Below, piece by piece: positions 4,801-64,000 of a stretch of 64,000 nucleotides of DNA. Within the stretch, counting starts at the first letter, position 1, and each line of letters starts with the position of its first letter. The notes below the pieces were generated by a model, which saw only the letters and a list, made by a program, of their open reading frames with translations, was not told where the DNA came from and ran no database searches. The translations under genes were made by a program, and so were the position numbers. The stretch comes from an uncultured bacterium (lineage in GTDB: Bacteria > Omnitrophota > Omnitrophia > Omnitrophales > Aquincolibacteriaceae): the NCBI GenBank assembly GCA_964562525.1, contig CAZLTL010000001.1, positions 104,428-168,427 of the forward strand, in the 5' to 3' direction.

Positions 4801-7206
4801 ATTGAAGTTTCCAACCGGGGAAATTTCTTCGACATAGTTCTTGCCGGCTTTTGGGCTCGATTGGTAAACAGTCTCTTCTTTGACTGAACCCTCCCAATCT
4901 TCCGCGCTTGCAACTTTACCCACCTTGGAAAAAACCCGAAAAAACTTGAGCAACGACCAATCCTGACGGCCTTTATCATCTTCAACTATTAATCGATAAG
5001 AATAAATTCCGGGCTGAATCAATACGCCCGAGTCAGTCAAACCTTCCCATAAAGTGTCGGCGGGCGGCTTACCAATACCATACCCCGACCAAACTTTGCG
5101 TCCCATTTCATCGCGAATTTCTAAAATCCATTTACGAACCATGTGCGGATAGTTCAGGTCAAATGTAAAAAGAGGCTGACGTTCCAACACTCCGGCGCCC
5201 AATTTCAAAACGTCAGGCTCCATCAAAACATCAAGCTGAGGAGGAGTGGTATCAAGTCCCTGCGTGATCTGAACGCTTAAATCCCCTTCAAATTCTTTCG
5301 GCATGGAAGGATTCCCGCCTTCCCAATCCTCTTTACCGCGCGGCGCCACAGCAAAATTAACCTTACTCATGACGCCGGGAGTGCTTTTAAAAAGGTAGGA
5401 TTCTTCTGTGATAAATTCTGTATTTTCAGGAAGCGTATGCGCGTCAATTTTTAAAACGTGACGGCCCGGGCGCATATTCGGAATGTGATACATACCGTTT
5501 TCATCGGTGGTTATCATGATGCCTTCTTCGGTATATAAATTCACAAAAGGCATACCATCTTCACCGGGTTGCTGCTGACCATCTCGATTGCGGTCGTGGA
5601 ACACCTTACCAATTACCGTGCTTTGGTCAAACATGGCATCTTCTTCAATTAACAATCTTTCTCGGGCTCTCAAATTCATTCCAACAGAATCAGTTAATAG
5701 AAAATCAATTTCATACAAATGCCCAGGCTTGACCCCACTTGTCACAACAAACGGCAGCGTAATCAAAATAGGGTCGCCGGGATTAAGCGTTCCGATCGGA
5801 ATAATCACTGAACCTTCCCGTGCATTTGCGTCCCCGCCATTCAATCCAACATCGGAAAGATTGACGTTGATTCCTTTTGGATTGTTCACCCGCAGCTGAA
5901 CCCCTGTAAAGGTACTATCTGATTCGTTGTTAAAGCTAACCACAGCAGGGACAATGTCTCCCGCCTTTGCTTTACGTTTAGAAAGTGTGACATTGAACGC
6001 GGTAGGATTAATCGAAGCGAACAAGCTATCAAAATCGACACTCGCTGACCCTAATCCGCTGGATGGCTGAATTCGCAGAGTGAAAGTGACTCGATCCGCC
6101 CCAGAAGGAACCACCCCTGAGGTTGAAAGCAAAGTAAAGTCATCGGTCGTAGAAGATAATGAAGCAATATCGCTATCCACCGTAGTCCCGGAACTATTTT
6201 GATATTCAATCACCATTTGCGCGGACTGCCCCACATTCAAACTATTCACCTGCACCAATCCCGAAAAAGTCACCGGAGTTCCGGGAGAAACTCGCGTGCC
6301 AGAAGATTGGAATGTAAAAACCCCACCGGTTGTTGCTGCCGATTCCGCCAAGCGCAAAAAGTTATTTCCCTCAGGCGCACCCACGGAAACAATTGAAATA
6401 CCACGATTCGCGGTATTATCCCAATTCCCCGAACCCCCGATCGAGCTTTCAAAACCAGGATTGTTAATCGCATTATTGACACCGCTGATATTCGTCTGAG
6501 TAGTATTTAAAGCCGCCGCGGCAGCAACCGACTTAGTCACCGAAGCAGAGTCAATTTGGACTTTTGTCGTATTTCCAACATTTCCATCCTGAATACGCAT
6601 AACAACTACAACGTGGTCTGTTGTAAGAGGTGCTACGGCTGATATAGATAGTGGGGCAAACCCCTGAACAGCCGAAATGTTTGCAGAATCACAAACCAAA
6701 TCAACACCGCAAACACCCGCACCCAAAGCAATAGTAGCATCCGCCGCATTCTTAAACTCAATCACAAGTTCAAAAAAAGCCGCTCCGACTTGCTCGGTCA
6801 TCGCCACTTCGGCAGAAAAGGTGACGGTATCTCCCGGAGCAACAGAACCGGCGGCCGTACTTTGAAAAGTAAAAGGAAAATTGGCTATATGATCAACTCC
6901 CTCTGGAGTTAACTGAAGAACTTGGACCCCAGCGGGCGGAGCACCAGGTGTTGCAAGCGTAATACCACGTCCCGCGGTAGCATCCCAATTGCTCGAACCA
7001 CCAAGAGCGCTTTCAAAACTACGATTCGAAATGAGCTGAGAAGGGGCTGTTGCATTCGCGTTAAACGCGGTTTGAGTCACAGAAACATCTGGTGCAGTGG
7101 TAATTTCGGTAATTGCACGCGCGGCAAAAACAGATGTGTCGACGCTTGTCAAAAGCATCGCCGTCATCGCGACAACCGAAATTATTTTTTTAAATTCTTT
7201 TTTCAT
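1834..7206 (-). CDS. Giant (1790 aa) secreted/outer-membrane protein with two tandem CBM4/9-like beta-sandwich repeats, DUF11-like and SdrD-B-like Ig domains, and a long beta-rich C-terminal region ending in Phe
   Basis: It has a signal peptide, MKKEFKKIISVVAMTAMLLTSVDTSVFA. Two ~170-aa repeats begin NRSFESALGGSSNWDATAGRGI and NPGFESSIGGSGNWDNTANRGI, matching the N.GFE...W start of CBM_4_9-type domains. GKVFHDRNRDGQQQPGEDGMPFVNLYTEEGIMITTDENGMYHIPNMRPGRHVLKID fits the SdrD B-like fold. The C-terminal ~900 aa are rich in alternating aromatic residues and end ...HGPFVRMSGKF, an outer-membrane barrel signature. Confidence 0.65.
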   Translation of the reverse strand: MKKEFKKIISVVAMTAMLLTSVDTSVFAARAITEITTAPDVSVTQTAFNANATAPSQLISNRSFESALGGSSNWDATAGRGITLATPGAPPAGVQVLQLTPEGVDHIANFPFTFQSTAAGSVAPGDTVTFSAEVAMTEQVGAAFFELVIEFKNAADATIALGAGVCGVDLVCDSANISAVQGFAPLSISAVAPLTTDHVVVVMRIQDGNVGNTTKVQIDSASVTKSVAAAAALNTTQTNISGVNNAINNPGFESSIGGSGNWDNTANRGISIVSVGAPEGNNFLRLAESAATTGGVFTFQSSGTRVSPGTPVTFSGLVQVNSLNVGQSAQMVIEYQNSSGTTVDSDIASLSSTTDDFTLLSTSGVVPSGADRVTFTLRIQPSSGLGSASVDFDSLFASINPTAFNVTLSKRKAKAGDIVPAVVSFNNESDSTFTGVQLRVNNPKGINVNLSDVGLNGGDANAREGSVIIPIGTLNPGDPILITLPFVVTSGVKPGHLYEIDFLLTDSVGMNLRARERLLIEEDAMFDQSTVIGKVFHDRNRDGQQQPGEDGMPFVNLYTEEGIMITTDENGMYHIPNMRPGRHVLKIDAHTLPENTEFITEESYLFKSTPGVMSKVNFAVAPRGKEDWEGGNPSMPKEFEGDLSVQITQGLDTTPPQLDVLMEPDVLKLGAGVLERQPLFTFDLNYPHMVRKWILEIRDEMGRKVWSGYGIGKPPADTLWEGLTDSGVLIQPGIYSYRLIVEDDKGRQDWSLLKFFRVFSKVGKVASAEDWEGSVKEETVYQSSPKAGKNYVEEISPVGNFNIFKDGKRSIPLIAKPTVRVRGRTLPENKAYINDAPVDVNPETGRFGKEFYVNPGENEFVVNVVSPEGESTLYTEKVKVKDSMFFLVALGEQELGKNFADGSIETVGSDKQYKDGFYQDGRLSYFLKGKLKGKFLVKSKFDTGDKRNALFTNLDPDEYYPIYGDKSQINYEGLNTGSRFYMLVEMDRSFVRWGSFQTEFDDTELASYNRTLSGLQVHHESLQTTPYGDAQRGFKVFSTNNSNKGAHVELESTGGTLYYLRDRDIVEGSEQLSVEVRDKIQDIAIGRYDLQEGTDYEIDYESGRVMLTRPLSSMASPHTSFSTDMADGNRVFLIADYEYVDGFDPRENDNRGFRGYTHMGKHIRVGGTMVEERRDQEDYDLRAVDMTMKFGRNTRIITEYATSMLQQKDQAVSYDGGFNYADLGLLSGRKNDGRERAYLIKAESKPVKNWEVNGFLQGVEPGFSNDILKSQEGYKKYGVANRYRLTDNLHLKYRYDHNEIEESLLPLTSGNILAPFESFNSHTGGITYDNGLWLAETEYFRRTLNGPDNPAWLSPSLESEIPFNDGIVAKLGYRVTERFMPYAKTQVAIHEKGNHQFGGGVRYEVMNDLYAYMEQMFGKIGDSTLFGIEKRHGPSASTYASLKSHDRGIGSKTLSTAIGSNYHFDNGSRLYSERELSTYNSVDGFADIFGYDSKFGEHWDYGARFERRRLNNSTTRRLDTLALQGLARANTYNTVGGHLAYVGAAQKVEDWEGNVKYSPFEKLKARVSGEFRKDQDQPELWQVVTRNSLEYKVSRDLSFLSYLNLSYSSAQFSSSAFDLDTNFMEWNTGFAYRPINYDRFNMLTRYTRIINSDKLSLLGTDLNTDDSAHIIQMDASYDINRYVEIVEKIGFKRSIASLLSDDFALNSMLWANRLNFHVTRKWDIAAEYRILLQDKSADNHLHGALVEVDRELYDYVRVAVGYDFADFTDDLRKSNDYSSHGPFVRMSGKF

Positions 7207-7286: not shown

Positions 7287-8987
7287 TTAGTAACGGCGGC
7301 TGGCGAAACTAACGCCAAAACGCAAATCATTACGCACAAAATCTTGGTTCTCAGAGCTGTCTTGTTTGACGCTCTGAGCTTTACCGATCGCAAGCCACTC
7401 ACCAAAAATCTTTATCTTTGAAAGCCATTCGTTTTCCTTATGGCGCCAAGTACGGAAAGGCATCCAGCGCACGCCCGCGGAAACATAGTAAGTATTTTGG
7501 AAGTGAAAGGCATGCGCACTGTTCACTGAGCTTTCCAATCGTAAATAAGGCATCAATGCGATTTCATTGTTAATCGGATTATCCGGGAGAGGAATTCCGG
7601 GCAGCTTCACGCCCAACATCAAAGAGTTGCTGAAAGTCCAAGCATGAGAGTATTTGTCCAAACTAAAATCAGTTTTTGCCCAATGGTAATCCGCAAAATA
7701 TTCGCCCCATACAAATTCCTGCAAATACTCCGTAAAATTCTCCGGAGCAGGCTGGTTTAAATCGGGAAGCTCAACTCCAAACTCATAAAACAACTGCACG
7801 CCTGCTTGCAAATCCCAGTCATGCGCAGATATTTCATCTTTGATATTTTTGCGGTCGCCATACTTAACAAAAAAACGATAATTACGCACCCACTCTAAAA
7901 GTTTAATATTGCCGAAAGGACGGTAATTCGCGAGCCAATGATTGCGCGCCAAAGGCCGCCACTCCACACCCGCGAAGAAATCTGCTTTGCTTTTAAAATC
8001 TTCCGAAACGGCTTCCATTGAAACCGTCGATTCCAAAAAGGGATCCAAAGTATTCAGCGGAAAACGAATCCCGCGAAACACCACACGATTCGACCAATAG
8101 CCGACTTGACTATTGAACTTATTGTCTTCGAGGTTGGTTTTACGCCACGAAGTTTCGCCGAATGACTGCCACAAGACTGGCTCGCCCGCACCCTCACCTT
8201 GAAATGGCCCCCAAATTTGTTCACCTAAATCCATTTGATCAGCCCATTTCAAAAAGAGGTCTTCTTCTTTGCGCTGATTGGAAACATAACTCTGATCAAA
8301 CTGAGTGACATATTCATCTTCAATTTCAACAGGCACCTGAGCTTCCGCGACCATCTCATCAAAGTTGCCGCCAATTTGAACCGCCTGCTGACGTGTTTGA
8401 GAGATTAAATTCTTTGCGTCTTCCACGCTCGAAAAAGCTTTATCACCCACCCAATAAAGTGTAGGGCCTCCTCCGGGCAATGCCATCTTTCGGATTTCAA
8501 CCCCGCCCTCATCGGAAGTTTCTAAGTTGTTTTGAACATAGTCATTCACATCATCAATGGTTTTGAGACCTTTTAAATAACGGGTCTTCACAACTTCACC
8601 GCCGAAATCGGTAATCACCGCGTATTCTGCGTCCATTTTCCGGGAAGGGGTTTGCACGACCGTGAACCCCTGAACATCGGTCGCAATCGACTCTGATTTT
8701 TTAGAAGGCGCGGCGAAAAAAGTCTTGGCAAAAAGATTGGGCTTAGGAATTACTTTTTCTTTTTTGACGGTTAATTTAGGTTCGGCGGCAGTTTCCAAAA
8801 CCGAACCGGATGGCGGAGAAGCGCTATCCTTGCTCATCGCAGCTTCTAATTCTTGATCAAGATTGAGATTGGCGGGTTTGAGATCAGCTTGATCGGATAG
8901 AAGTGTTTGGGCAAAAAGCGGACCTGAAAAAAGAGCGAAAACAAGAGCTCCGCTCAACAATAAAAGATTGTATCGTTTATTTTTCAT
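7287..8987 (-). CDS. Hypothetical outer-membrane protein (566 aa, signal peptide, W/Y-rich beta-rich C-terminus ending RRY)
   Basis: It has a signal peptide, MKNKRYNLLLLSGALVFALFSGPLFAQT. The C-terminal half has an amphipathic alternating aromatic pattern and ends in an aromatic residue. I recognise no catalytic motif. Confidence 0.5.
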   Translation of the reverse strand: MKNKRYNLLLLSGALVFALFSGPLFAQTLLSDQADLKPANLNLDQELEAAMSKDSASPPSGSVLETAAEPKLTVKKEKVIPKPNLFAKTFFAAPSKKSESIATDVQGFTVVQTPSRKMDAEYAVITDFGGEVVKTRYLKGLKTIDDVNDYVQNNLETSDEGGVEIRKMALPGGGPTLYWVGDKAFSSVEDAKNLISQTRQQAVQIGGNFDEMVAEAQVPVEIEDEYVTQFDQSYVSNQRKEEDLFLKWADQMDLGEQIWGPFQGEGAGEPVLWQSFGETSWRKTNLEDNKFNSQVGYWSNRVVFRGIRFPLNTLDPFLESTVSMEAVSEDFKSKADFFAGVEWRPLARNHWLANYRPFGNIKLLEWVRNYRFFVKYGDRKNIKDEISAHDWDLQAGVQLFYEFGVELPDLNQPAPENFTEYLQEFVWGEYFADYHWAKTDFSLDKYSHAWTFSNSLMLGVKLPGIPLPDNPINNEIALMPYLRLESSVNSAHAFHFQNTYYVSAGVRWMPFRTWRHKENEWLSKIKIFGEWLAIGKAQSVKQDSSENQDFVRNDLRFGVSFASRRY

Positions 8988-25027: not shown

Positions 25028-27487
25028 TTATAAATAACGGGAAAGCGATTCGGCTTTTTTACGGGCATAATAAGAAGCCAGCTCAAGCACCGACTGCGGA
25101 TCAGGCTTAACGGATAACTCTCCAAAAGCCCCGGAAGCAAGTAAAGTGATTGGACCAAACCAAGTATCATTCTGAGAAATAAAATCATCCGCGCGCTTCG
25201 GAAAAAGTTGCCGAAAAATAGCGGCATCGATTTTTGTTTTAAGTCTCAAATTCAAGGCCCCTTCGCGGCTCACTTCGCCTTCACCTTCTACTTGCAGGCG
25301 ATCGCCGTCCAGTTGAATAAGCTCCGCGTTTAAGCGGTCATTTTCAATTTGGCCGGAAGCGCTCAGTTCCGTAAAAGCAATTTCAGAGGAAATCTGCTCC
25401 TGCGAGGGATCCCCCAGCGGTTCAATTTTACGGAAAGCGCTCACCCAATCAAAGCGGGTCAAGCGTCCTTCGCGGATGCTTAATGAGAACGGTCCATCCC
25501 AGTTCATGCTTTCCGAGCCACTGCCGCGTGAACCGTTAAAGTCCGCATTCCATTTTAATTTCCCTTCAATATCGGAGGCTGCAGCTCCGGAAAAACGGAA
25601 AAACTTGTCCGCCGACATATCCGTCCCCTGTAGCTGCACGCGGACTTTTTGATCTTGCGCTGACATTTTTGAATAAAATGAACCCGCCAAAACTCCGTCA
25701 AATACCTGAGATTCAATCGCAGAAATATCCATTTCACCTGACCCAAAAGCTAATTTCATTTTTAAATTTTCAAAAGGCTCTTCACTCAAGATAAGACGCT
25801 GAACCCAATTGTGCTGACTTTGCAGCCAAGCCTCATGCTCTCCGCCCCAAAACGCGGTCCACTCTTTCCACGCTTGTCCCGAAGTCAGTTTTTTTGAATT
25901 TAAAGTCCCTTCCCAGCGAGGGTTACTTTCCAAATGCAACCCTTTCAAATTAAGCTCAAAAACAGAGCCTCCCAAACTAAACTGAACCGCCTGCGCCTCG
26001 GTCTGCATCGGACTGAAATCAAGACTGAAATTCATATCTTTAAAGCCTGCTCCTGTTCCTTTGCGCAAAATGCGACCGTCCTGCATCGTCAAATGAAACA
26101 TTCTTTCAAAAGGCTTACCGTCTTTAAAGTTACCTTTCCAATCCCCAAAAATCTTCATGCCTCCGCCGAACTCATAATCTTCAAGAAAAGGCACCACTCC
26201 GGTCAGCTGCTCAGCCGCGAAAGAGTTGGTGATCAAGTTTACTTTTGTTTCGCCGGAAGGACGCCATTCCGCAAGGCTTCCCTTAAAATTCATCCCTTCA
26301 AAACTGCCCGAAAATTCCCCGGACAAAATTTTGGCGGCCCATTCAAAGTCGGTTTTTAAACGAAAAGATTTCTCTTTCGGCTTCTGAAAAAAACGGCCAT
26401 AAGTAAAAAGCGTGCGGGTAAAATCAAAGTCCCCCGCAATTTTCAAACGATTCGCGTAACCATTGAGTGAAGCGCTCAAATCCGCCAGCCCGGAAAATCC
26501 AATAAAGTAAGGGATCTTATTTTTGAAATCAGGAAAATATGTCGTTAAGTCGTCAAGTTTGACATCAGAGAAAGTAAACGTCAGCGCGCGAAATTCACGG
26601 CGATGCGGCAAATAGGTGCCTTGTAAATTAAACTTTGAAAAAGGCAACTCGGCCAAACACTGATTAAATTTTAATTCATCGGTTGTGGGGCTGAAATGGC
26701 CCGAAAATTTGAGCTGCAAATTGCCGGCTTTGTGCTTTTCCGTAACCGCTTTATCCGTACTGCTGAAAACAAGCTCACGCAACCCGGCATCGCCCGAAAA
26801 CAAAATGCGATCGCTGCCGGAATCGCGGCGCAAAACAATCAAAAAGTCTGAAGGACCAGAGCTGGGAATCCATCCCAAAAACTCCCACTCGGGATTATCC
26901 TTAAACCGAAAGTTGCGAGTCAAAAGCTGAACTTGAAAACCAAGCCCATTCAAGCTGGGATCCTCAAGTGGCGGCAAGGTGACTTCCCCATGCAAAATTA
27001 CGGCTTTGTGCCGACCAGACGAATCTCCGCTCATATAAACCTTCACGGGGCGATTGGAGAGAAGCGCGGAAGTTTTAAGATCAATGCGCTCAACCAAAAA
27101 GTTATGCACGCCTTTCGGTGCATCAAGCTGCCCCTTCCAAGTACCATTCCGAAGGCGCATTCCTGAAAAACCAAACTCGCCCCAGATCAGCTTAAAAAGA
27201 TCCAGCTTCAGCTCGAGTGAATCCGCACTCAGCTCATGCTTGAGGTCGCTTTTAAAATGAAACACCGGATGGGAAAAACGCACTACCGGAAAAGGCATGA
27301 GCCGCCAATTCATCGATTCATACTTAAAGTCGCTTTTAGTTACCATCGCGAAATAAGAGGTCAGCTTTTCAGTAGGCTTGCCGTTGGCAGCCCAAGATTG
27401 GTAACGGAGGAACGCAGCGAGAAATATAACCGCAAAAATAAGGAGAAGCGCGGCGAGGACTGCTAAAAAAAACTTCTTAAAATTCAT
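25028..27487 (-). CDS. AsmA-family-like large envelope protein (N-terminal TM anchor, ~820 aa, beta-rich)
   Basis: It has an N-terminal hydrophobic helix, MNFKKFFLAVLAALLLIFAVIFLAAF. The body is long, low-complexity and beta-rich with repeated G.F.G and W segments, as in AsmA/TamB-like proteins. The assignment is by architecture only. Confidence 0.4.
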   Translation of the reverse strand: MNFKKFFLAVLAALLLIFAVIFLAAFLRYQSWAANGKPTEKLTSYFAMVTKSDFKYESMNWRLMPFPVVRFSHPVFHFKSDLKHELSADSLELKLDLFKLIWGEFGFSGMRLRNGTWKGQLDAPKGVHNFLVERIDLKTSALLSNRPVKVYMSGDSSGRHKAVILHGEVTLPPLEDPSLNGLGFQVQLLTRNFRFKDNPEWEFLGWIPSSGPSDFLIVLRRDSGSDRILFSGDAGLRELVFSSTDKAVTEKHKAGNLQLKFSGHFSPTTDELKFNQCLAELPFSKFNLQGTYLPHRREFRALTFTFSDVKLDDLTTYFPDFKNKIPYFIGFSGLADLSASLNGYANRLKIAGDFDFTRTLFTYGRFFQKPKEKSFRLKTDFEWAAKILSGEFSGSFEGMNFKGSLAEWRPSGETKVNLITNSFAAEQLTGVVPFLEDYEFGGGMKIFGDWKGNFKDGKPFERMFHLTMQDGRILRKGTGAGFKDMNFSLDFSPMQTEAQAVQFSLGGSVFELNLKGLHLESNPRWEGTLNSKKLTSGQAWKEWTAFWGGEHEAWLQSQHNWVQRLILSEEPFENLKMKLAFGSGEMDISAIESQVFDGVLAGSFYSKMSAQDQKVRVQLQGTDMSADKFFRFSGAAASDIEGKLKWNADFNGSRGSGSESMNWDGPFSLSIREGRLTRFDWVSAFRKIEPLGDPSQEQISSEIAFTELSASGQIENDRLNAELIQLDGDRLQVEGEGEVSREGALNLRLKTKIDAAIFRQLFPKRADDFISQNDTWFGPITLLASGAFGELSVKPDPQSVLELASYYARKKAESLSRYL

Positions 27488-27603
27488 GGAGAACAGTATA
27501 CCTTGACCAACAGCGCATAGCCACAAAAGCCAAGGCCGAATTTAAATCAATTTTGTTTAATACGAGGAGCCCGTAGATCCAAGAGGAGCATACGAATAGT
27601 CCT

Positions 27604-40782: not shown

Positions 40783-41865
40783 TTACTGGATGAACATTCC
40801 ATCGCCATAACTCGCGAATCTATAATCGGTATCTAAAGCCGTCTGATAAGCATCCATCGTCTTTTCATAGCCCATAAACGCGCTCACCAAAACCAGCAAT
40901 GAAGTTTTCGGAAAATGAAAATTTGTAATCAGCGCATCCACCACTTTAAATTCATAAGGGGGATAAATAAAAAGCCCGGTCGCACCCTGCCCCGACTCCA
41001 CAACGCCGTCACTATTGACCGCCGCTTCTAAAGTACGAACGCTGGTGGTTCCGCAAGCAATGACTCGCCGGCCTTCTTTTTTCGCTTTATTGATTGCCGC
41101 AGCCGCAGGATCAGAAATCGTAAAAGTTTCAACCGCCATTTGATGATCGCGGATACGCGGAGCCTGCATAATTTGAAAAGTTCCGTACCCGACATCCAGC
41201 GTCACTTCAACAATCTCAACACCTTTTTTCTTAATCGCTTCCAAAAGCTCCTTATCAAAATGCAAACCCGCCGTGGGCGCCGCAACCGAACCTGCTTTTT
41301 CGGCAAATACGGTTTGATACTGCTCGCGATCCGAAACCTCGTCGTCACGGTGAATATAAGGGGGTAAAGGCATATGTCCGGCTTTTTCAAGAAATGCCGG
41401 AAAATCCGAAGTTTCAAACTCAAGCAGGCGGCGACCGTCGTCTTTACGCGGATGGTCTACCGCTTTCACGGTAATAAAATGCGCGCCTTGACCAACTTCA
41501 AAGCATTCGCTTTTTTTAATTTTACCTGATGGTTTAACCAACGCTTCCCAAACAACGCTATCCGCTTTTTTCTCAACAAGTTTTAAAAGTAAAACTTCCG
41601 CTTTCGACCCGGTCATGCGATGCCCAAAAATACGCGCGGGAATAACGCGCGTATTATTCACAACGAGCACATCGCCGGCTTTTAAATACTCCGGCAAATC
41701 TTTGAAAATGCGATGATCAGCGGATTCATCTTTACGGTTTAAGACTAACATTTTCGCCGCCGACCGGTCCGGCAACGGATAAAGCGCGATGCGTTCCTTG
41801 GGAAGCGGGTAATCGAAGTCGCTTAAAAAACGTCCGGAAGATGAATGCGGTGCGGAAGAGCTCAT
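40783..41865 (-). CDS. queA: S-adenosylmethionine:tRNA ribosyltransferase-isomerase
   Basis: LSDFDYPLPKERIALYPL, VLVVNNTRVIPARIFG and PLPPYI are present. Confidence 0.9.
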   Translation of the reverse strand: MSSSAPHSSSGRFLSDFDYPLPKERIALYPLPDRSAAKMLVLNRKDESADHRIFKDLPEYLKAGDVLVVNNTRVIPARIFGHRMTGSKAEVLLLKLVEKKADSVVWEALVKPSGKIKKSECFEVGQGAHFITVKAVDHPRKDDGRRLLEFETSDFPAFLEKAGHMPLPPYIHRDDEVSDREQYQTVFAEKAGSVAAPTAGLHFDKELLEAIKKKGVEIVEVTLDVGYGTFQIMQAPRIRDHQMAVETFTISDPAAAAINKAKKEGRRVIACGTTSVRTLEAAVNSDGVVESGQGATGLFIYPPYEFKVVDALITNFHFPKTSLLVLVSAFMGYEKTMDAYQTALDTDYRFASYGDGMFIQ

Positions 41866-42539
41866 GCTATTTTTTCCCCTTTTAAAATTTCGGGAACAGG
41901 CTGAGTGTCAATCCGCATCCCCCCGTCATGTTCAATTTTTAATGTATAAATGGTGCCCGGTAAAAACAAAGTCCCGGGAGCTTCAATTTGCGCGTTCTTG
42001 ATTCCCGATTTCCCGCGAGTCTCGGCATCAAGCGCATAAAGCCAAAATTTCGACCAAAGGCTTTGCTCATAATCAGAAATTTTTTCGCCAATACGATAAC
42101 CTTCCGGCACACCCTGAGCCGGCGTCATTTCAAAAACCTGCGTGTCATCGGAATCAAGCACAAACGCTTTCAAAAAAAGATACGCGCTTTTGCCGCGAAA
42201 CTTGTCGCCTTTTTTAATCAAATCATCACTGAAGCGGATTACCAGCGATTGAAACTGAATCACATTCCCGCGGAAAGTAAAATATTTGGGCGCGAGCGGC
42301 TTGCTCTGCGCGTCATATTCTAAAAACTTGATCGTGGTCAAAACTTTACCGGTCGCTTCATCCAATTCACTCTTGGTCACAACCACTTCGGCGATACGGC
42401 TGTCCGCCGAAAGCCGCTCGATCATTGCTTTTAAAATTTTTTCGCGGTAAAGAAATTGCTGAATAGAAAAAGCCGCCGCGCCGATGACGCAGACAACCGC
42501 AATTAAACCCGCTTTTTTTGCGACGGAAGATAATTTCAT
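41862..42539 (-). CDS. Hypothetical membrane-anchored protein (~225 aa)
   Basis: It has an N-terminal TM, MKLSSVAKKAGLIAVVCVIGAAAF. No motif is recognised. It overlaps queA by 4 nt. The track ORF extends upstream across the tRNA-derived repeat, which is unlikely to be real. Confidence 0.45.
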   Translation of the reverse strand: MKLSSVAKKAGLIAVVCVIGAAAFSIQQFLYREKILKAMIERLSADSRIAEVVVTKSELDEATGKVLTTIKFLEYDAQSKPLAPKYFTFRGNVIQFQSLVIRFSDDLIKKGDKFRGKSAYLFLKAFVLDSDDTQVFEMTPAQGVPEGYRIGEKISDYEQSLWSKFWLYALDAETRGKSGIKNAQIEAPGTLFLPGTIYTLKIEHDGGMRIDTQPVPEILKGEKIA

Positions 42540-42611
42540 ATTCACTTTCGGAAAAATCTCCTCAAAAGAGCTTGGATAGCGGTTGTGCTTTGCACAGAGC
42601 CAAAACAAAAC

Positions 42612-42629
42612 TGTGCCCGGGTGGATTTG
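42612..42629. repeat. 18-nt direct copy of the 3' end of the tRNA-Arg gene (att-like scar)
   Basis: TGTGCCCGGGTGGATTTG at 42612-42629 is identical to 42823-42840. The latter covers the T-arm 3' half, acceptor 3' strand and discriminator of the tRNA. Confidence 0.5.
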
Positions 42630-42781
42630 GCGCTCTGCGCTCGTGTACGCTAGTCGCGTCACTTGCTACGAGTCGGCCACTCGCCACGCCTCGACTTCTT
42701 TCGCATAAGCCATGACATTAAGTCATGCCTTTGCTCAATCAGCCTTACAAATTGCGCGGCTCACTTCAAATCCACTTCTTA

Positions 42782-42813
42782 ACCAATGTTTAAAAAGGAG
42801 CGTAGCTGCTCCT
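42782..42813 (-). terminator. Hairpin terminator immediately 3' of tRNA-Arg (bidirectional form)
   Basis: The sequence is TTTAAAAAGGAGC-GTAGCT-GCTCCTTTTTAAA. It has a 10-bp stem with an A-run and a T-run. Confidence 0.6.
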
Positions 42814-42824
42814 TTTTAAACATG

Positions 42825-42896
42825 TGCCCGGGTGGATTTGAACCACCAACCCCTGCCTTCGGAGGGCAGTACTCTATCCAGTTGAGCTACGGGCAC
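42825..42896 (-). tRNA. tRNA-Arg (anticodon CCG)
   Basis: The minus strand reads GTGCCCG-TA-GCTC-AACTGGATA-GAGT-A-CTGCC-CTCCGAA-GGCAG-GGGTT-GGTGG-TTCAAAT-CCACC-CGGGCAC-A. The cloverleaf is complete. CCA is not encoded. Confidence 0.9.
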
Positions 42897-43070
42897 GAAA
42901 CTTAACTACTCTGACTCTTGAGCAACACTATTTACCAGTTGTCCCTCAAAGCTCCGCTTTGTGAGGGATATGTCCTGTTCGCTTCGCTCTCAGGCAAAGC
43001 TACGGGCACAAAATATAATTAAAACCGGCCCAAGTCCTTAGCATCGCCAAAGGACGGGCACTTAAAAAAA

Positions 43071-44276
43071 CTAATTATAAATCTGTTCGATACTTGAACC
43101 AGGGTAAAAGTAACTCAAAATTTGCTGCGCAGTATACCCCAATTCGCCCATATATTTCGCCCCATATTGATCTAAACCAACGCCGTGGCCCCAGCCCCGC
43201 CCCCAGAAAGTCACGCCTTGTTTAGCGGGTTGATTGAGGTAACGCGTAATTAAAGTGCTCTTAAGTTTCTGCGCGCCGATCCAAACTCGAAACTCATTAA
43301 AACTCGGTTTGAATTTCCCATTCCGCCCAATCACTTCCATTTCGCGCGGACGCCCCGAGCGGTCATAACTTTTGAGTTTAATCTCACTCACGGCGCGCAC
43401 ACCCAATCCGCCGTCTTCTCGTACGACTTTTTCAATGTCGGCATACTTGATAAACACGGACCAAGTATCATGCTTTGACGACTGGCAGAATTCACATTTT
43501 ACGCCCTGAAGCGCGGGATGATACTTCACCGGCCAAACATCATTCGCGCTGGTGGTCGCGCCGCCGGATGCGGAATGAAAATAGGCCGGAAAAATTTCCC
43601 CCTGATAAAGTAAAACCACGCCGCGGGTCCGGTCAATAATTTCATCCGTGCGGTCATGACGAACATTTTCTCCGGCATACACCTGGCTGAGCGCTCCGCT
43701 GCCGACGTCAAAATCCTGATTTCTTTTTTCAATCATTTTGAACAAGGCAAAGGTCCTTGAAACAATCGCGGAAGCCTCCAGCGTCGCGTCCGTCCATTTG
43801 GGGTTGGCTTCAAACGGAATGACGCCTTTGAGATAATGCTCAAGATCAATGTGGTTAATGATTAAAAGTTGATTGCCGGCTTTTCTTTTAATTTCTAATC
43901 CGTTTTTATAAACGCGCTTATCAAATCTGACGCCGGGGCCGTTGACGCTCCGTACGAAAATTGAAGTTGTCTTAAACACTTTGCTCCCGAACTGAATTCC
44001 GGAAGCGGTCGCACGAATCGTGGTTGGAGCGAGATTCGCGCCTTGAACGAGCCCGCCCAAGCCCTGCCCATCAACTTGAAAGGGGCCCACGGAAGAAACT
44101 TGAAAAGGCTTTTCGGTGCCGCCCACTTGGACACGAATCGTGTGATAAGCGCTAATGTCCGGAGGAAGAACATACGAAGTCTCAAGCAGTTTGCGACTTG
44201 AGCTCCAGCCCAAGAAAAGAAAACTTGCCGCAAAAAAAACAATAAGCGCCCGTTTTTTATTTAGAAAGGAAATCAT
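43071..44276 (-). CDS. SpoIID/LytB-domain protein (amidase enhancer family)
   Basis: It has a signal/TM N-terminus. The signature segments HSASGGATTSANDVW and GRGWGHGVGLDQYGA are present. Confidence 0.85.
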   Translation of the reverse strand: MISFLNKKRALIVFFAASFLFLGWSSSRKLLETSYVLPPDISAYHTIRVQVGGTEKPFQVSSVGPFQVDGQGLGGLVQGANLAPTTIRATASGIQFGSKVFKTTSIFVRSVNGPGVRFDKRVYKNGLEIKRKAGNQLLIINHIDLEHYLKGVIPFEANPKWTDATLEASAIVSRTFALFKMIEKRNQDFDVGSGALSQVYAGENVRHDRTDEIIDRTRGVVLLYQGEIFPAYFHSASGGATTSANDVWPVKYHPALQGVKCEFCQSSKHDTWSVFIKYADIEKVVREDGGLGVRAVSEIKLKSYDRSGRPREMEVIGRNGKFKPSFNEFRVWIGAQKLKSTLITRYLNQPAKQGVTFWGRGWGHGVGLDQYGAKYMGELGYTAQQILSYFYPGSSIEQIYN

Positions 44277-47947: not shown

Positions 47948-48811
47948 CTAGTTAACGGAAACAGGATCAACAGGCACCGCAACAGGCTCTTCCATTTTGG
48001 GCGGCTGCGGAGGAATCTCGCCAACCTTAGTCGCGAAAAGCATGTATTCGGTATGTCCGATCATACGCATTTCGGGACGTGATTTTCCGGCACGCGCGAG
48101 AATTTTCCGCTCAAGCAATTCCACCGCTTCAACATTAATGAAGCCATGATCGCGCAGCGTTTCCGCCATGCGTTCCACCTGATTGATCGTGGGATTAAGC
48201 GAACACAACCGGCCGCCGGCTTTGAGCGCCTTCTTCACCAACTCCACTTCTTCCCAGGGCGTCGGAATATCCAAAATCACGCTGTCAAAAGCGTTCTCAG
48301 GAAACGGATCGCCTTTTTGCCGATGATTAAACTCAACCACCGACTGCAAATCTGAACGTTCAATATTCCGCACCGCATTGGCCGGCAAATCAGTCCGCAG
48401 ATCATACGTGCAAACTTTTCCTGTCGGCGCGACTTGATGCGCAAGAAAAAGCGTCAGCGCGCCGGAACCTGTGCCGATTTCCAAAATTCTTTTGCCGGAA
48501 TGAATCGAAAGCTTGATCGCGAGCAAAGCCGCGTCTTTTGAGTAAACAACGCCGCTTTCACGCGAAGCTTTAAACATAAGATCTTCCGTCGAAGGTTTCA
48601 GAAAAAAACCTTTGAGACTGGTACCTTCAACATAAGATCCGAACTCTTTTCCGATAATATCGTCATGCAGTAAAGGGCGTCCGCAATGAATCGGATGCTT
48701 CTTTCCGCGCGCGATTTTCAAAAGATAAGTCTTCTCATCTTCAAACCAAAGAAGAACCAAATCCCCTTCTTTAATGGCATTGCCGGAAATCACTTCGGTA
48801 TTTGACATCAT
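47948..48811 (-). CDS. trmI: tRNA (adenine58-N1)-methyltransferase TrmI/Gcd14 family
   Basis: It has the SAM motif ILEIGTGSGALT. The fold is collinear with TrmI. Confidence 0.75.
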   Translation of the reverse strand: MMSNTEVISGNAIKEGDLVLLWFEDEKTYLLKIARGKKHPIHCGRPLLHDDIIGKEFGSYVEGTSLKGFFLKPSTEDLMFKASRESGVVYSKDAALLAIKLSIHSGKRILEIGTGSGALTLFLAHQVAPTGKVCTYDLRTDLPANAVRNIERSDLQSVVEFNHRQKGDPFPENAFDSVILDIPTPWEEVELVKKALKAGGRLCSLNPTINQVERMAETLRDHGFINVEAVELLERKILARAGKSRPEMRMIGHTEYMLFATKVGEIPPQPPKMEEPVAVPVDPVSVN

Positions 48812-59796: not shown

Positions 59797-62700
59797 TTAC
59801 GCAGCCAAAGCAAAAACAAAGTTATTTTCATAAACTCTTTGAAGCTCATTAAGCAAAGAGTCTGCGACTGTCCAAAATCCATTTTCATTTTTTACACCTT
59901 GGAAATGCACGCTTTCACCGCCTGAAACAGCCCATAGAATCGCCGTTGCAAGCGTTCCGCTTTTGTTTCCGTTCGCTTTAAAAAAAGCCACTTTTTTATG
60001 CAAACTTCCAACTAATGCCTGCGTAGGCAAAATGTGTTTTGATAGATGAATGGCAGGAGTATTCATTCTGGAAAAAGCCACGGCGGCTCTTTCAAGATCC
60101 TTATCTGTCCTCTCCACTCGCTCAAGTTTCAACAGAGCATTAAGTTCTTTGTCCTTCACTTGCCCACGCTCGTTATATACCACTATGCGAGCGGCTTTAT
60201 TTGAAAGTGCAATAAATAAACACTCTTGCTTCTGTGCCTTTGACAAACTTAGGAAATCCGCCGCATCTAAAAAAACGGTGAACGGTTTATCGTTTCTTCT
60301 AAGCTGTAGGATCATCTCACGCACATTTCCAGGGTTTTTCGTAGCTGAGTTTTTAGGGAACAATAAATCACTGCCTGAACCCAATTGAAGTTTTTGATTC
60401 CATGCATCTTTATCACCCACAACCACACGACTTTCTGAACGATTAGTTTTTGGAAAAGGAAATAACTTGTGTCCCCAATCTGGGTCAGAATCAGCTGAGG
60501 ACTGTGCATCAGAAATATCCATACCCTCTTCAGAGCCTGGCTCATGAAAAACCAGTTTATAGTCATTGGTATCTGTCTGCTTATACTCAAGAAATCCGTA
60601 ATCATCAGCATCAACACCTTCATCTAACTCAAGTGAACTGAGCTTGAACCCTGGAATATAATTAGATCCTCTTTCTAATGTGAAGTGATCCATAATGCTT
60701 TTCAACGCTTTTCCACCTATTCTTCGAGTTAAAAAGTCCCTTAAAAAATCCATCACCTTATCCGATCGGTTTTGCGCGTGAAAAATATTCTTATCCACCA
60801 TCGATTCAATTTCCAAGTTCACTTGCTCCTCAGAAAGTGGCAAAATATTTTTCAAAACACTTCGGGCAGTTTGGTAGAACACATTTTCATTATCAACTAA
60901 GGCCAGTGTTTCCACGATTTCGCTTAAACGCTCAGAATTATCAAAGTAGTCAAAAACATTTTTTTCAACACTCGTATCTCCAACCTTAACTGGAACCTTC
61001 CCATGAAAAAAGAACTCTTTAATATGGTTTCTTAAAATCGAAAAGCTTGTTTGAGATAGGGTGTCAAGCGACACAAGATCACCAATCAAGGCTGCAACAG
61101 CCTCATCGTCTAGTTCTGCTTCTGGGTTAGAAAGCAAATGAAGGTAATTAAAAACCAAAAAAGCTGGATCAGCATCATCCATCAAATTAAGAAATAAATT
61201 AAACTGCTTCACTTTCTGCCAGCTCTCAGTGAATCCATCTAGCTCTTCACCATCTCGAGCAATCAGGGATTTTTGCTCTGCGGGAGAACCTTCTTCGAAT
61301 TTTTTTCGACTTTCTTCCCAGTTAAATTTATGAATAACTTTGTAATAATGCTCTAGATAACTACGGTAATTTAAAAGCGCCTTGATATTTTCAATTTTAA
61401 AATAAGCATTTTCATTAGCTTTACTCACTTCTTTAAGAATGCCATAGTCATCCAAAATAAATGCGGCTAGAAATTCTGCCAAATTTTCACGCAAAGTAAT
61501 CTGATCTATTTTGCCTGGACGATAAAGAACATCTCGCCCTAAAATTAGCTCGATTTCTGCATCAGATTTATGCACACGGCTTGATTCCGCCGTCCAATCA
61601 GGCCGGATCATTAACCGAACATCCTCAATATTGGCATTAATACGGATATTTCCGATGAGGCTTTGAGGCATTAAGTTAATTGCTTTTTCAATTGCGGAAT
61701 GAATATTTCGCGCCTCAGTCTCGGAAACGCCCTTTTCAAACACAAGATCGCCTATACCGTCTGCAAAAGGCATCTGCAGTCCTTTTTCAAGCTGCTCAGC
61801 TTGTTCTCGCTCACTCTCCAAACGCTGTTGCACAGATGCCGAACTAAGCATAAAAGCTTCTTGTGGAATATCAATAACATATACTTCGCTGTAAGAGTAA
61901 TTGTGCTCTCCTGTAGATAAAACTGTACTAGAAACTAATTTTTCTTTTTTTAGCCACCTCTTCCCTTCTAGCGCTTTTATCACTTCTTTAACATTGTCAC
62001 GGTTGGAATAAATACTCTCAGAGTCAGGAATCACGGCAGCGGCCAAACCGTTTTCAAGCGCTAATCTTTGAGCTGTTTCAAGAAGAGCTAAAACAGCTCT
62101 CTCTGGATCCATCCCCAACTCCTTGTCAGCAAGATTAATTCCAGGAAGTGCCAAAACAGTCCACCCCTTGGGACTTTTACTTCGAGCATAACCTTGAATA
62201 TCTGTCCTTAAAATTTGAACCTGACTCACTGCCGCAACTCTTCCAGAAGAGTTCTTAATTGCTAATTTTCCAAAATGATAATCAGTGTTTTTAACCTGAT
62301 CAGGGCGATAGTAAGCTGTGCAAACACCAGACAACATAAAACCCATCAAATGCAATAGATCGTCAAAAAAACCAACATAAAAAGGTTCTTGAGTCTCTGT
62401 TTCAATAATAGAAAAAAGATCCAGCTCCGCTTCGACACCTTCTATTTCAGGCAAAAAAATCTGTGATATTTTTTGAATAACATGAGCCTTCAAAACACTT
62501 CTATTTTCTTTTATCTTACTCGGCGTAGCGGACGAAGTCAGTCTTTGCGCACGTGCACTAACAAGGGCTTCGCGTAAAATTTTATCCAAATCCTTGAGCT
62601 CGAAAAAGGAATCTCCTCTGTCACGAATGATCTTCGAATGAAGCTTAACGCTAAAAGCAGTTACCCCTTCATCCAGCCAGCGTTGAAACAACAAATCATT

Positions 62701-64000
62701 TTGGAGACTGCTTGTTTTTATGCGAACCATCCATTTACGAAGAAAAAGATCCTCCATCTTTTGGATTCTTTCAGACTTGGAAAGTTTGTCTCCGGAAAGG
62801 ATCTTAACCATATCTTTATCAACATTAAATTTTAATTCGTCCATACCCACTGTTAAGGCTTTCTGAATATCTGCTAAAGCACCCTCTAATTCCACAACAT
62901 TCATCTCTTCCACTTTTTGCATAATAACTTTTTCTAAACGAGTTAACACATGCAGCTTAAAAGTATCCTTAAAAAGTGTTGACCATTTTTGCAACCAACC
63001 TTGAATGCTGGCTTCATCGCTAGGGGTTTGCGACAAATTTGTGGCAGCTAAACCGCCCTCTTTCATTGTGATCTGAATCAAAGCTTGCCGCAACTGTTGC
63101 AGAGCCGTGGAACTCGTATCAAACAAATTACGCAAAACAATCTCTTCTGATTTTTCTTCTAATTTTTTAGGAATTAGCCCCCTTAATGATTGATGAAAAG
63201 CCTCTCGGTTATCACGACGCACTGTTCCTTGAGCGTCATATACGACGGTACTCCGGCTACCGCCAAGCTTATACAAAGACCTTAATCCGGGATCAACCTC
63301 TTCAGTCCAAGCAGCACCTCTGCTTTGGAGAACTGCCTTTATTTTTTCATATATATTCTCATAGCGTTTAGCCGTATCGTTATACATGGGCATGTATTTT
63401 CCAAGCAAAGCCATCTCATCCTTGGAAGTCAAACTATACTTACGCATAAAGTCATCCGTGAAGCCCTTGAAGGTTCCCCAGGCAATGTTTCCAAGGCTTT
63501 CTTCCACATCACGCTTTAACTCTGCCACAATCTGAGGCTCATGTTCATGCGCAATAAAGTATTTAAAAATCGTAAAACTAATGACCTTAAAACCAGCGGC
63601 ATAATAACGATCAATCTGTCCTTTAAAATCACTCCATTCTTGTGCGCCCCAATTTTCAATTTTCCCTGAGCTACCCAACATCTCTAAAACCCCTGAAACC
63701 TCCTGAGGAGCTGCGCGACTTCTTTTTCGAGCAATGGCAATCGTTAAATCTAGTAAATAGTGGAATTTTCCTGCTGTCTGTAAAGCATTCGTGACTGACA
63801 AAGCCCCGCCTACGATATCTTTGCCTTCCCCAAACATTCGAATAATTCTTGTTAACGGATTGTTCGACGGAAGGACATCACGCAAGGGAAGAAAAACAGT
63901 GGAAGGAACTCCCATATTATAAAATGCTTTAAGAACAAGGGTAATATTGTCATGAGTAATCGATAAAAATGAATAAATGTTGGAAAGTGCTTGCTCAGGC
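59797..64000 (-). CDS. Very large hypothetical protein (more than 1400 aa; ORF still open at the window edge) in an AT-rich segment
   Basis: The minus-strand ORF is continuous from 64000 to 59797, with no stop in frame upstream of the annotated ATG at 63915. GC is about 37%, against about 50% for the rest of the window. There is no signal peptide, TM helix or recognisable catalytic motif. Confidence 0.65.
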   Translation of the reverse strand, partial: PEQALSNIYSFLSITHDNITLVLKAFYNMGVPSTVFLPLRDVLPSNNPLTRIIRMFGEGKDIVGGALSVTNALQTAGKFHYLLDLTIAIARKRSRAAPQEVSGVLEMLGSSGKIENWGAQEWSDFKGQIDRYYAAGFKVISFTIFKYFIAHEHEPQIVAELKRDVEESLGNIAWGTFKGFTDDFMRKYSLTSKDEMALLGKYMPMYNDTAKRYENIYEKIKAVLQSRGAAWTEEVDPGLRSLYKLGGSRSTVVYDAQGTVRRDNREAFHQSLRGLIPKKLEEKSEEIVLRNLFDTSSTALQQLRQALIQITMKEGGLAATNLSQTPSDEASIQGWLQKWSTLFKDTFKLHVLTRLEKVIMQKVEEMNVVELEGALADIQKALTVGMDELKFNVDKDMVKILSGDKLSKSERIQKMEDLFLRKWMVRIKTSSLQNDLLFQRWLDEGVTAFSVKLHSKIIRDRGDSFFELKDLDKILREALVSARAQRLTSSATPSKIKENRSVLKAHVIQKISQIFLPEIEGVEAELDLFSIIETETQEPFYVGFFDDLLHLMGFMLSGVCTAYYRPDQVKNTDYHFGKLAIKNSSGRVAAVSQVQILRTDIQGYARSKSPKGWTVLALPGINLADKELGMDPERAVLALLETAQRLALENGLAAAVIPDSESIYSNRDNVKEVIKALEGKRWLKKEKLVSSTVLSTGEHNYSYSEVYVIDIPQEAFMLSSASVQQRLESEREQAEQLEKGLQMPFADGIGDLVFEKGVSETEARNIHSAIEKAINLMPQSLIGNIRINANIEDVRLMIRPDWTAESSRVHKSDAEIELILGRDVLYRPGKIDQITLRENLAEFLAAFILDDYGILKEVSKANENAYFKIENIKALLNYRSYLEHYYKVIHKFNWEESRKKFEEGSPAEQKSLIARDGEELDGFTESWQKVKQFNLFLNLMDDADPAFLVFNYLHLLSNPEAELDDEAVAALIGDLVSLDTLSQTSFSILRNHIKEFFFHGKVPVKVGDTSVEKNVFDYFDNSERLSEIVETLALVDNENVFYQTARSVLKNILPLSEEQVNLEIESMVDKNIFHAQNRSDKVMDFLRDFLTRRIGGKALKSIMDHFTLERGSNYIPGFKLSSLELDEGVDADDYGFLEYKQTDTNDYKLVFHEPGSEEGMDISDAQSSADSDPDWGHKLFPFPKTNRSESRVVVGDKDAWNQKLQLGSGSDLLFPKNSATKNPGNVREMILQLRRNDKPFTVFLDAADFLSLSKAQKQECLFIALSNKAARIVVYNERGQVKDKELNALLKLERVERTDKDLERAAVAFSRMNTPAIHLSKHILPTQALVGSLHKKVAFFKANGNKSGTLATAILWAVSGGESVHFQGVKNENGFWTVADSLLNELQRVYENNFVFALAA

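Follow-up and report, generated by a model that had tools for sequence, protein, structure and literature searches.

The tRNA-Arg(CCG) gene considered here lies at positions 42823 to 42896, on the minus strand, of a 64,000-nucleotide stretch of DNA (the window). It is intact, does not encode its CCA end, and is the sole tRNA gene of the window according to both ARAGORN and Rfam (RF00005, 66.6 bits, full length). The locus is flanked by a SpoIID-like gene (43071 to 44276), whose homologues place the host in Candidatus Omnitrophota, and by the gene for an unknown 226-aa protein (41862 to 42542), with queA and tgt also among the flanking genes. A Pfam scan of 44 open reading frames across the whole window recovered housekeeping functions only, including arginine and lysine biosynthesis, secDF, recJ, RNase III, TruA and a GCD14/TrmI-type tRNA methyltransferase. 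The scan detected no Phage_integrase, recombinase, transposase or reverse transcriptase domain, and the window contains no open reading frame for a DEDD/serine recombinase of the IS110 type. All parts of the tRNA locus described below are likewise on the minus strand.

The last 18 nucleotides of the tRNA (C56 to A73; 42823 to 42840) comprise the last 5 nucleotides of the T-loop, the 3' strand of the T-stem, the 3' strand of the acceptor stem and the discriminator base. This block recurs as a direct repeat at 42612 to 42629, identical at 18 of 18 positions, just as a preliminary description of this DNA had reported; we refer to the two as the proximal and distal copies. The 18-mer (TGTGCCCGGGTGGATTTG on the plus strand) occurs exactly twice in the 64 kb, and the same two matches were the only ones recovered when two mismatches were allowed, against a chance expectation of 0.01. 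The copies are separated by 193 bp, with a start-to-start distance of 211. The hairpin adjoining the tRNA that had been noted earlier is indeed present, as a perfect 16-bp inverted repeat (42786 to 42801 and 42808 to 42823). Three other features in the preliminary description are real but needed correction. The inverted T-loop fragment, TTCAAATCCAC (expectation, 0.15), lies at 42765 to 42775 rather than at 42756 to 42766; the palindrome, at 42711 to 42727, reads CATGAC-ATTAA-GTCATG, with a spacer of 5 nt and not 4; and the repeat of the tRNA start, which had been placed at 42988 to 42998 and 91 nt upstream of the gene, is at 42998 to 43009, 101 nt upstream. Two of the four coordinates were 9 to 11 nt off.

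Comparison with related genomes revealed both filled and empty versions of the site, which is the presence/absence polymorphism foreseen in the preliminary description. In L082, L095 and L112, three loci from one species whose SpoIID is 86% identical to that of the window, the tRNA is identical to the window's and is followed at once by GTTTTGTTTTGGCTCTGTGCAAAGCACAACCGC, the very 33 nt found in the window just after the distal copy. The original 3' flank of the tRNA (GTTTTGTTTTGGCTC in the tRNA sense; 42597 to 42611 in the window) comes directly after the tRNA in the empty L082 locus and after the distal copy in the window and in a further locus, L087. The window and L082 therefore differ by a clean 211 bp, gained or lost, that correspond to positions 42612 to 42822 and consist of 193 bp of unique sequence plus the distal 18-nt copy; this segment is absent from all three loci. 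From these boundaries, the predicted empty-site junction is ...CGGGCACA joined to GTTTTGTTTTGG, and a circle produced by excision of the element would be predicted to carry the junction ...GAGCGC, CAAATCCACCCGGGCACA and TGTTTAAAAAGG, in that order.

The filled state was also found outside the window's clade. L087 (GCA_043718225.1), with a SpoIID 75% identical to the window's, belongs to another clade and carries a homologous insert (80% identity over 181 nt). The two elements, 193 bp in the window and 194 bp in L087, are collinear over their full length, although the intergenic DNA upstream of the tRNA can no longer be aligned between the two loci. The 18-nt copy in L087, CAATTCCACTCGGGCACA, exactly reproduces the variant end of L087's own tRNA at both variant positions and is followed by GTTTTGTTTTGGCT, the same flank as in the window. 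One of these positions, a C65-to-T change, has no pairing partner inside the element. That the distal copy matches the host tRNA perfectly even at an unpaired position argues for duplication at the time of insertion and against slow coevolution. The filled state thus occurs in two clades, of which the window's also holds the clean empty relative L082, and the tRNA and operon are the same in relatives that lack the element. L091, a relative of L087 with a partial SpoIID, has no insert after the tRNA and a 3' flank that differs from that of L087, and L086 has a compact empty locus without a repeat. The tRNA of L081 was uninformative, as it holds a run of N's with duplicated ends that represents a scaffolding gap. 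Together, these alignments support the view that the downstream repeat marks a precise insertion or deletion at the tRNA 3' end; the integration/excision signature proposed in the preliminary description is upheld to that extent, but its reading of the interior as a scar is not.

The 193 bp between the copies are organized, in the tRNA sense, as a hairpin (H1), a segment complementary to the T arm (anti-T), two further hairpins (P2 and P3), and the distal copy, which closes the domain with the anti-T segment. H1 (42786 to 42823) immediately follows the tRNA, and its core in the window is terminator-like (GGAGC-loop-GCTCC-TTTTT). A hairpin at the H1 position is maintained by compensatory changes, without the U-tract, in L087 and in two more distant loci, L022 and L023, that are described below. 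The anti-T segment, GTGGATTTGAA (42765 to 42775), is the exact complement of tRNA positions T54 to C64 and has two predicted pairing partners, the distal copy (helix P1) and, in an alternative fold, the T-loop and T-stem of the tRNA itself. P2 (42683 to 42760) is a long interrupted hairpin with the palindrome at its tip; its 25 pairs (helices 5 and 6) include 3 compensatory changes and no broken pair between the window and L087. P3 (42628 to 42679; helices 7 and 8) has a conserved GACTA loop and 6 compensatory pairs between the same two sequences. The first 9 nt of the distal copy form P1 in the predicted fold, and the last 9 nt, corresponding to the acceptor 3' strand and the discriminator, are unpaired when the element is folded alone. 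The result is a predicted three-way junction closed by a contiguous helix between anti-T segment and copy. The sequences from the window, L087, L022 and L023, each folded individually, all form H1 followed by an anti-T:copy helix that closes two hairpins.

We evaluated this fold on an alignment of two sequences, the window and L087, using column shuffles as null models. The RNAalifold consensus structure had an energy of -73.8 kcal/mol, compared with -30.6±4.1 kcal/mol for shuffled alignments, and 14 of its 65 pairs showed compensatory double changes (null, 2.9±1.4; maximum, 7). All 130 of the 130 pair cells held standard pairs; when the partners were slid by 1 to 3 columns, only 35 to 47% could pair and at most 2 compensatory pairs were left. 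Most substitutions between the window and L087 fall in paired positions, and the unpaired motifs GAAGTGAGCC, GGCTGATTGA and GGCGAGTGGCCGAC are nearly invariant, as is the GACTA loop. The antisense strand folded less well than the tRNA-sense strand (-53.5 versus -73.8). No promoter belonging to the element itself was detected, and the element directly abuts the tRNA on the same strand. The inverted T-loop fragment, earlier taken for debris, is an integral, covarying part of this structure: in L087, a change of T-loop A59 to T is matched by a T-to-A change in the anti-T segment, with one other mismatch. What had been described as a scar with no cargo is a discrete, protein-less and highly structured element that is conserved between lineages.

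When every tRNA in the fetched loci was checked for a copy of its own 3' end farther downstream, two more cases emerged, both at tRNA-Arg(TCG) genes: L022, from an Elusimicrobiota metagenome-assembled genome (MAG), and L023, an orthologous locus from an unclassified MAG. In each, the parts after the tRNA come in the same order as in the window: first a hairpin, then the anti-T segment, next a GC-rich domain of two hairpins and last a copy of the tRNA end, with C56 as its first nucleotide. In both, the anti-T segment (GAGGGTTCGAA and CAGGACTCGAA) complements positions T54 to 64 of the locus's own tRNA without a mismatch. The duplication extends past the tRNA end by 6 nt in L022 and by 29 nt in L023. 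Over the four cases, the duplications measure 18, 18, 25 and 48 nt, and we know of no documented transposition or recombination chemistry that produces them together with an inverted copy of the target. The fold shared by L022 and L023 had an energy of -66.1, compared with -25.4±4.1 for shuffled alignments, with 14 compensatory pairs against 6.6±1.8. A covariance model built from the Omnitrophota pair did not detect L022 or L023, even with filters off, and found no further members in 398 kb. Because the model misses them, what the Omnitrophota and Elusimicrobiota-like families, each of two sequences, have in common is an architecture rather than a demonstrated ancestry. No recombinase, transposase or reverse transcriptase was found beside the element copies in L087, L022 and L023, and the genes called around the L087 and L082 loci are housekeeping genes.

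When tRNA and element were folded as one RNA, the same minimum-energy structure was predicted in four of four cases. In this precursor fold, the proximal T54-64 segment pairs with the anti-T segment over 11 bp, and the distal copy is taken up by the acceptor 5' strand in all four and, except in L087, by the T-stem 5' strand as well, so that the predicted RNA looks like a tRNA whose T-loop has received a large structured insertion. This structure lies 7 to 9 kcal/mol below that of a normal tRNA plus a separately folded trailer in all four cases (z = -7.1 for the window). The terminal AA of the anti-T segment, conserved in four of four, has partners only in T54-T55 of the real tRNA; the distal copy does not include T54-T55 and so cannot pair with it. 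Co-transcriptional folding would favor the normal tRNA, and the two-state switch is a prediction of these energy models.

The repeat of the tRNA start belongs to a separate 113-nt unit on the 5' side (42897 to 43009). The upstream copy of tRNA nucleotides 1 to 12 (GTGCCCGTAGCT) was identified by repeat search, and the 12-nt repeat, AGCTACGGGCAC, has an expectation of 0.17 at one mismatch. It is followed by a 56-nt insert with two hairpins (42942 to 42997) and a weak D-arm-like stretch (42921 to 42941), and the unit ends in a promoter-like A/T-rich stretch. L082 has the 5' unit at 88% identity and L090 has it with a single mismatch in the 12-nt copy; L087, L091 and L086 lack it. Folding on the tRNA-sense strand gave two hairpins (-28.6, compared with -14.2±3.0 for shuffled sequences), with one compensatory pair and several wobble changes, and in this prediction the 12-nt copy pairs with a segment inside the unit that complements it imperfectly, AACAGGACA. 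The A/T-rich flank upstream of the copy resembles that of the tRNA (83% over 24 nt), and the segment after the 56-nt insert matches tRNA positions 13 to 31 weakly, with a score of 9 (shuffles, 6.4±1.2) that was reached in 53 of 1,000 shuffles. The tRNA start and its A/T-rich upstream flank recur a third time, in degenerate form, at 43050 to 43073 (67% over 24 nt); this copy overlaps the hairpin that follows the SpoIID gene and is conserved in L082. With this distribution among the genomes, the 5' unit is no less patchy than the 3' element and is independent of the latter. The 5' repeat is part of a second, independent structured unit with a similar logic, in which a copy of a tRNA end is combined with an imperfect internal complement.

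Against Rfam 15, only the tRNA scored in the window region, L022, L023 and L087; there was no match to the group I intron model RF00028 at E values up to 10, and no second tRNA or pseudo-tRNA at E values up to 10 or by ARAGORN. BLAST of the insert against the tRNA found nothing beyond the 18-mer and the inverted 11-mer, and BLAST within the window found no second copy of the element. Scans of viral contigs with the attL junction, the tRNA 5' half and two insert motifs gave no match, and BLAST against phage and plasmid collections gave matches to the tRNA only. Neither an excised form nor a larger, gene-carrying parent was found among the viral contigs, the phage and plasmid collections and the 116 fetched loci. 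A metagenome scan with the tRNA 5' half returned 22 loci, of which 2 were relatives, both of the known empty-site species; the remaining loci came from unrelated high-GC organisms that share this half of the tRNA. In a scan of genome contigs with a SpoIID alignment, the relatives among the matches listed, including L022 and L023, had at most 36% identity. Loci reached through homologues of the 226-aa protein had no tRNA there, and no account of the layout turned up in full-text searches of the literature.

Several known classes of element could be rejected on their defining features. MITEs, or miniature inverted-repeat transposable elements, have terminal inverted repeats, a short target duplication of fixed length (2 to 10 bp) and multiple copies per genome; here, TGTTTA... 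at one end and ...GAGCGC at the other do not form an inverted repeat, the duplicated sequence has 18 nt (18, 25 and 48 in the other cases), and the window holds one copy. A bridge- or seek-RNA module of the IS110/IS1111 type is flanked only by a 2-nt core and goes with a DEDD/serine recombinase, whereas this locus has an 18-nt direct repeat and no such recombinase in the 64 kb; no donor-complementary loops were identified in the predicted fold, for which only two sequences per family are available. A group I intron was rejected because there is no RF00028 match, the insertion is at the T-loop and 3' end, and an intact tRNA precedes it. The group I requirement for U(-1) and a terminal G could not be accommodated, as a single nucleotide of the repeat would have to be both U and G, and with the boundary set at 55/56 the last base of the element is C, not the required G. 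An IS200/IS605-type element and a casposon-like target duplication were also rejected on their features, and a second or tandem tRNA was rejected as the source of the 3' element, given the single tRNA and the 18-mer as the sole BLAST match. As for tRNA-targeting integrative elements of the tyrosine-integrase type, the locus has a repeat of the tRNA 3' end with an intact tRNA and an empty site with identical flanks, but no integrase in the 64 kb.

The element shares traits with five known systems and is distinct from each. Nearest in logic are the T-loop-targeting elements of tyrosine integrases and their CIME-type derivatives, which lack the integrase but keep flanking att sites. These, too, have a direct repeat that spans the tRNA from its T-loop to its precise 3' terminus, a restored tRNA at one junction, an empty site in relatives and a hairpin of their own after the tRNA. 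In contrast to these, the present element is 193 bp long, has no gene and no integrase within 64 kb, has a compensated fold with an inverted, covarying copy of the target core, and in two cases has a repeat that runs 6 and 29 nt past the tRNA. The bridge (seek) RNAs of IS110/IS1111 elements offer a second comparison. The ssr9 module of ISPpu9 is a selfish module consisting of an sRNA gene only, which an IS110-family transposase moves in trans, and, like the element described here, it is small, structured, noncoding and site specific with no enzyme of its own (PMC12288879). The likeness extends to a size of around 150 to 200 nt and to a target-complementary segment that suggests nucleic-acid-guided site choice. 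However, IS110-type insertion duplicates only a 2-nt core, compared with 18 to 48 nt here; bridge RNAs carry short, split target and donor guides in internal loops, whereas here there is one contiguous 11-nt complement that pairs with the duplicated target copy; and the present locus has neither a DEDD/serine recombinase in the 64 kb nor an Rfam match.

The attC sites of integrons and the attP site of CTX phage are folded single-stranded attachment sites. As in the present element, the site is made by intramolecular pairing of inverted segments whose sequence is free to change if pairing is kept, and the elements can be very small, with the recombinase encoded elsewhere. The differences are that the target here is a tRNA T-loop, that no integron integrase or Xer context is known here, and that the G-U-type wobbles and the preference for the tRNA-sense strand fit RNA at least as well as DNA. 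Functional tRNA 3' trailers such as 3'ETS-leuZ resemble the element in being noncoding RNA directly downstream of a tRNA, presumably co-transcribed with it. Those known to us, though, are short and have no bounding copy of the tRNA end, no anti-T-loop segment and no presence/absence variation bounded by repeats. Finally, the group I introns of bacterial tRNAs are also structured RNAs of ~200 nt that interrupt a tRNA gene and have an internal complement of the exon sequence at the insertion point, but they lie in the anticodon loop and need splicing, whereas here an intact tRNA precedes the element.

Considering these observations together, we lean, at somewhat less than even confidence, toward the 193-bp element being a nonautonomous, site-specific, structured insertion that is moved by an enzyme encoded elsewhere. 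The filled/empty polymorphism, the tracking of the host tRNA variant by the repeat, the sense-strand fold, the anti-T match and the recurrence of the layout at tRNA-Arg(TCG) all speak for insertion, and ssr9 of ISPpu9 is a precedent for an sRNA-gene module moved in trans. Speaking against it are the single copy in the window, the two sequences per family, the negative searches for a recombinase, transposase or reverse transcriptase (in the 64 kb and beside the other three copies) and for an excised form or a larger parent, the nearly invariant unpaired motifs, and the covariance model's failure to detect the second family. Insertion would have taken place between U55 and C56, which is equivalent to a position right after A73, with production of a second copy of nucleotides 56 to 73; the tRNA would have been left intact, and its original 3' flank would now lie 211 bp farther downstream. 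The anti-T segment may recognize the target by pairing with the T-loop region, either in RNA form or as one of the two halves of a folded, single-stranded attachment site, and the mobilizing enzyme might recognize the conserved hairpins. Duplication of the tRNA 3' end could make the insertion harmless to the tRNA and the downstream operon, and the direct repeats could permit clean excision. A broader proposal, which we consider unlikely, is that the four cases represent an undescribed protein-less class that inserts into the T-loops of different tRNA-Arg genes in at least two phyla, with the site chosen by the 11-nt complement (as RNA or folded single-stranded DNA) and the tRNA 3' end duplicated. 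In a variant of this proposal, the insertion would make the tRNA transcript two-state, with the tRNA body able to pair with either 3' end.

The main rival to a mobile insertion, which we regard as possible though doubtful, is a resident functional 3'-trailer RNA that is co-transcribed with tRNA-Arg and was lost in L082, and possibly in L091, by deletion between the 18-nt repeats. Such an RNA could modulate tRNA maturation by switching between two folds or act after its release, and the repeat would exist because the RNA needs a tRNA-like 3' end. The strong purifying selection on both pairing and unpaired motifs is consistent with this explanation, and unpaired motifs with almost no variation are just as much to be expected of a cellular RNA. 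The same can be said of the location directly against the tRNA, on the same strand with no promoter detected, of the predicted precursor switch with its lower-energy second fold in all four cases, and of the single copy in a housekeeping neighborhood. There is also precedent, as 3'ETS-leuZ of Escherichia coli is a functional RNA derived from the 3' external transcribed spacer of a tRNA operon. A resident RNA does not readily account for a distal copy that tracks the host tRNA even at a partnerless position (C65 to T in L087); gene conversion is unlikely to have kept the copy matched across 211 bp in which identity is limited to 18 nt. It would also require the element to have been lost independently and with perfect precision once at the least (L082) and perhaps twice (L091), and it must accommodate the retention of the same tRNA and operon in element-free relatives and the recurrence of the architecture, with other repeat extents, at a different tRNA-Arg gene in another phylum.

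The two remaining explanations are less likely. The element might be the remnant of a larger, integrase-borne island or prophage of which attL and attR survive, with the interior deleted to about 190 bp. Tyrosine-integrase elements reportedly fall into classes by sublocation within tRNA genes, as set out by Williams in 2002, and an 18-nt block of identity that begins in the T-loop and stops exactly where the tRNA does is what T-loop-targeting integrases classically leave; the empty site in relatives and the hairpin that the element supplies right after the restored tRNA end point the same way. We nevertheless consider this origin improbable, as long-diverged lineages carry the same-sized, collinear element with substitutions concentrated in compensatory pairs, two further genomes have the same compact layout, no integrase is nearby, and no larger relative appeared in viral, phage or plasmid collections. 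A fold conserved through compensatory pairs fits neither the passive decay of an island nor a decayed copy of a tRNA. The decayed tandem tRNA duplication suggested in the preliminary description, leaving fragments of both ends, is accordingly very improbable: on the 3' side there is no tRNA similarity beyond the 18-mer and the inverted 11-mer, no pseudo-tRNA match at E values up to 10 and a conserved non-tRNA fold in the interior, and the 5' evidence, consisting of the A/T-rich flank shared with the tRNA and the match to positions 13 to 31 (p of about 0.05), is marginal.

Islands and prophages classically integrate at the 3' ends of tRNA genes, and short att-like repeats that enclose nothing tend to be written off as scars. 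In this case, what lies between them is a conserved folded element that includes a target-complementary segment and has been maintained by compensatory changes. Whichever explanation holds, the layout provides a searchable signature, namely, a tRNA, the reverse complement of its positions T54 to 64 and a copy of positions 56 to 73, that can be applied to public genomes. As a resident RNA, the element would represent a new structured RNA linked to a tRNA and capable of competing with that tRNA's T arm and 3' end. As a mobile element, it would rank as the smallest kind of tRNA-targeting insertion, would be a candidate for site choice guided by nucleic acid with no enzyme linked to it, and would point to an unknown trans-acting recombinase. 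The element may be a new kind of miniature tRNA-targeting insertion.

An element with the same layout as the one in the window was found at tRNA-Arg(TCG) in two Elusimicrobiota-like MAGs, L022 (7533-7765) and L023 (8182-8416), both numbered on the reverse complement. In both MAGs, the parts follow the order seen in the window: a hairpin, an anti-T segment, a two-hairpin domain, and a copy of the tRNA starting from C56. Each anti-T segment is the exact complement of T54-64 of its own tRNA. The duplication of the tRNA end overshoots that end by 6 nt in L022 and by 29 nt in L023.

The spacer 3' of the tRNA also varies in L082, a close relative with an empty site. There, a 29-nt hairpin motif occurs twice (5805-5935), as GTTTTGGCTCTGTGCAAAGCACAACCGCC and GTTTTGGTTCTGCGCAAAGCGCAACCGCC, in copies that lie 71 nt apart and whose hairpins are distinguished by a compensatory change. 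The window contains a single copy (region compared, 42541-42611), against the two in L082, a further case of a small, repeat-bounded difference in the length of this tRNA-downstream spacer. On the other side of the tRNA, a hairpin that follows the upstream gene is kept in both L082 and the window, and it starts with GTGCCCG, as the tRNA does. Between the SpoIID-like gene and the tRNA, L082 (5188-5550) and a further genome, L081 (GCA_002344825.1), carry a 120-amino-acid ORF with a faint LTXXQ/Spy-like match; the window has no such ORF (43010-43070).

In L081, the tRNA-Arg gene itself is interrupted by ~235 N (5776-6010). Identical 24-nt sequences (TAGAGTACTGCCCTCCGAAGGCAG) stand on either side of this run. 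It appears to be non-biological, a gap introduced when contigs with overlapping ends were scaffolded. The contig of another relative, L090 (5215-5259), stops within the tRNA, after position 45; the separate structured 5' unit is present there, its 12-nt copy of the tRNA start having one mismatch (GTGCTCGTAGCT).

Directly 3' of the window tRNA-Arg are queA and tgt, which encode tRNA queuosine enzymes, and 5 kb from the locus is a gene (47948-48811, minus strand) for a GCD14/TrmI-type tRNA methyltransferase, a family responsible for the T-loop modification m1A58. The closeness of these genes to tRNA-Arg is probably coincidence, yet the entire neighborhood is tRNA related. Elsewhere in the window, four large minus-strand ORFs of 1,790 (1834-7206), 1,372 (59797-63915), 832 (25028-27526), and 566 (7287-8987) amino acids gave either no Pfam match or a marginal one below the curated cutoff.

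In four relatives (L084, L085, L088, and L089; SpoIID identity of 69 to 72%), neither tRNA-Arg nor the block of the 226-amino-acid protein gene, queA, and tgt adjoins SpoIID, which is instead followed 3' by autotransporter, SlipAM-like, and FecR-like genes. The junction at the window tRNA-Arg is therefore a rearrangement point within the group.
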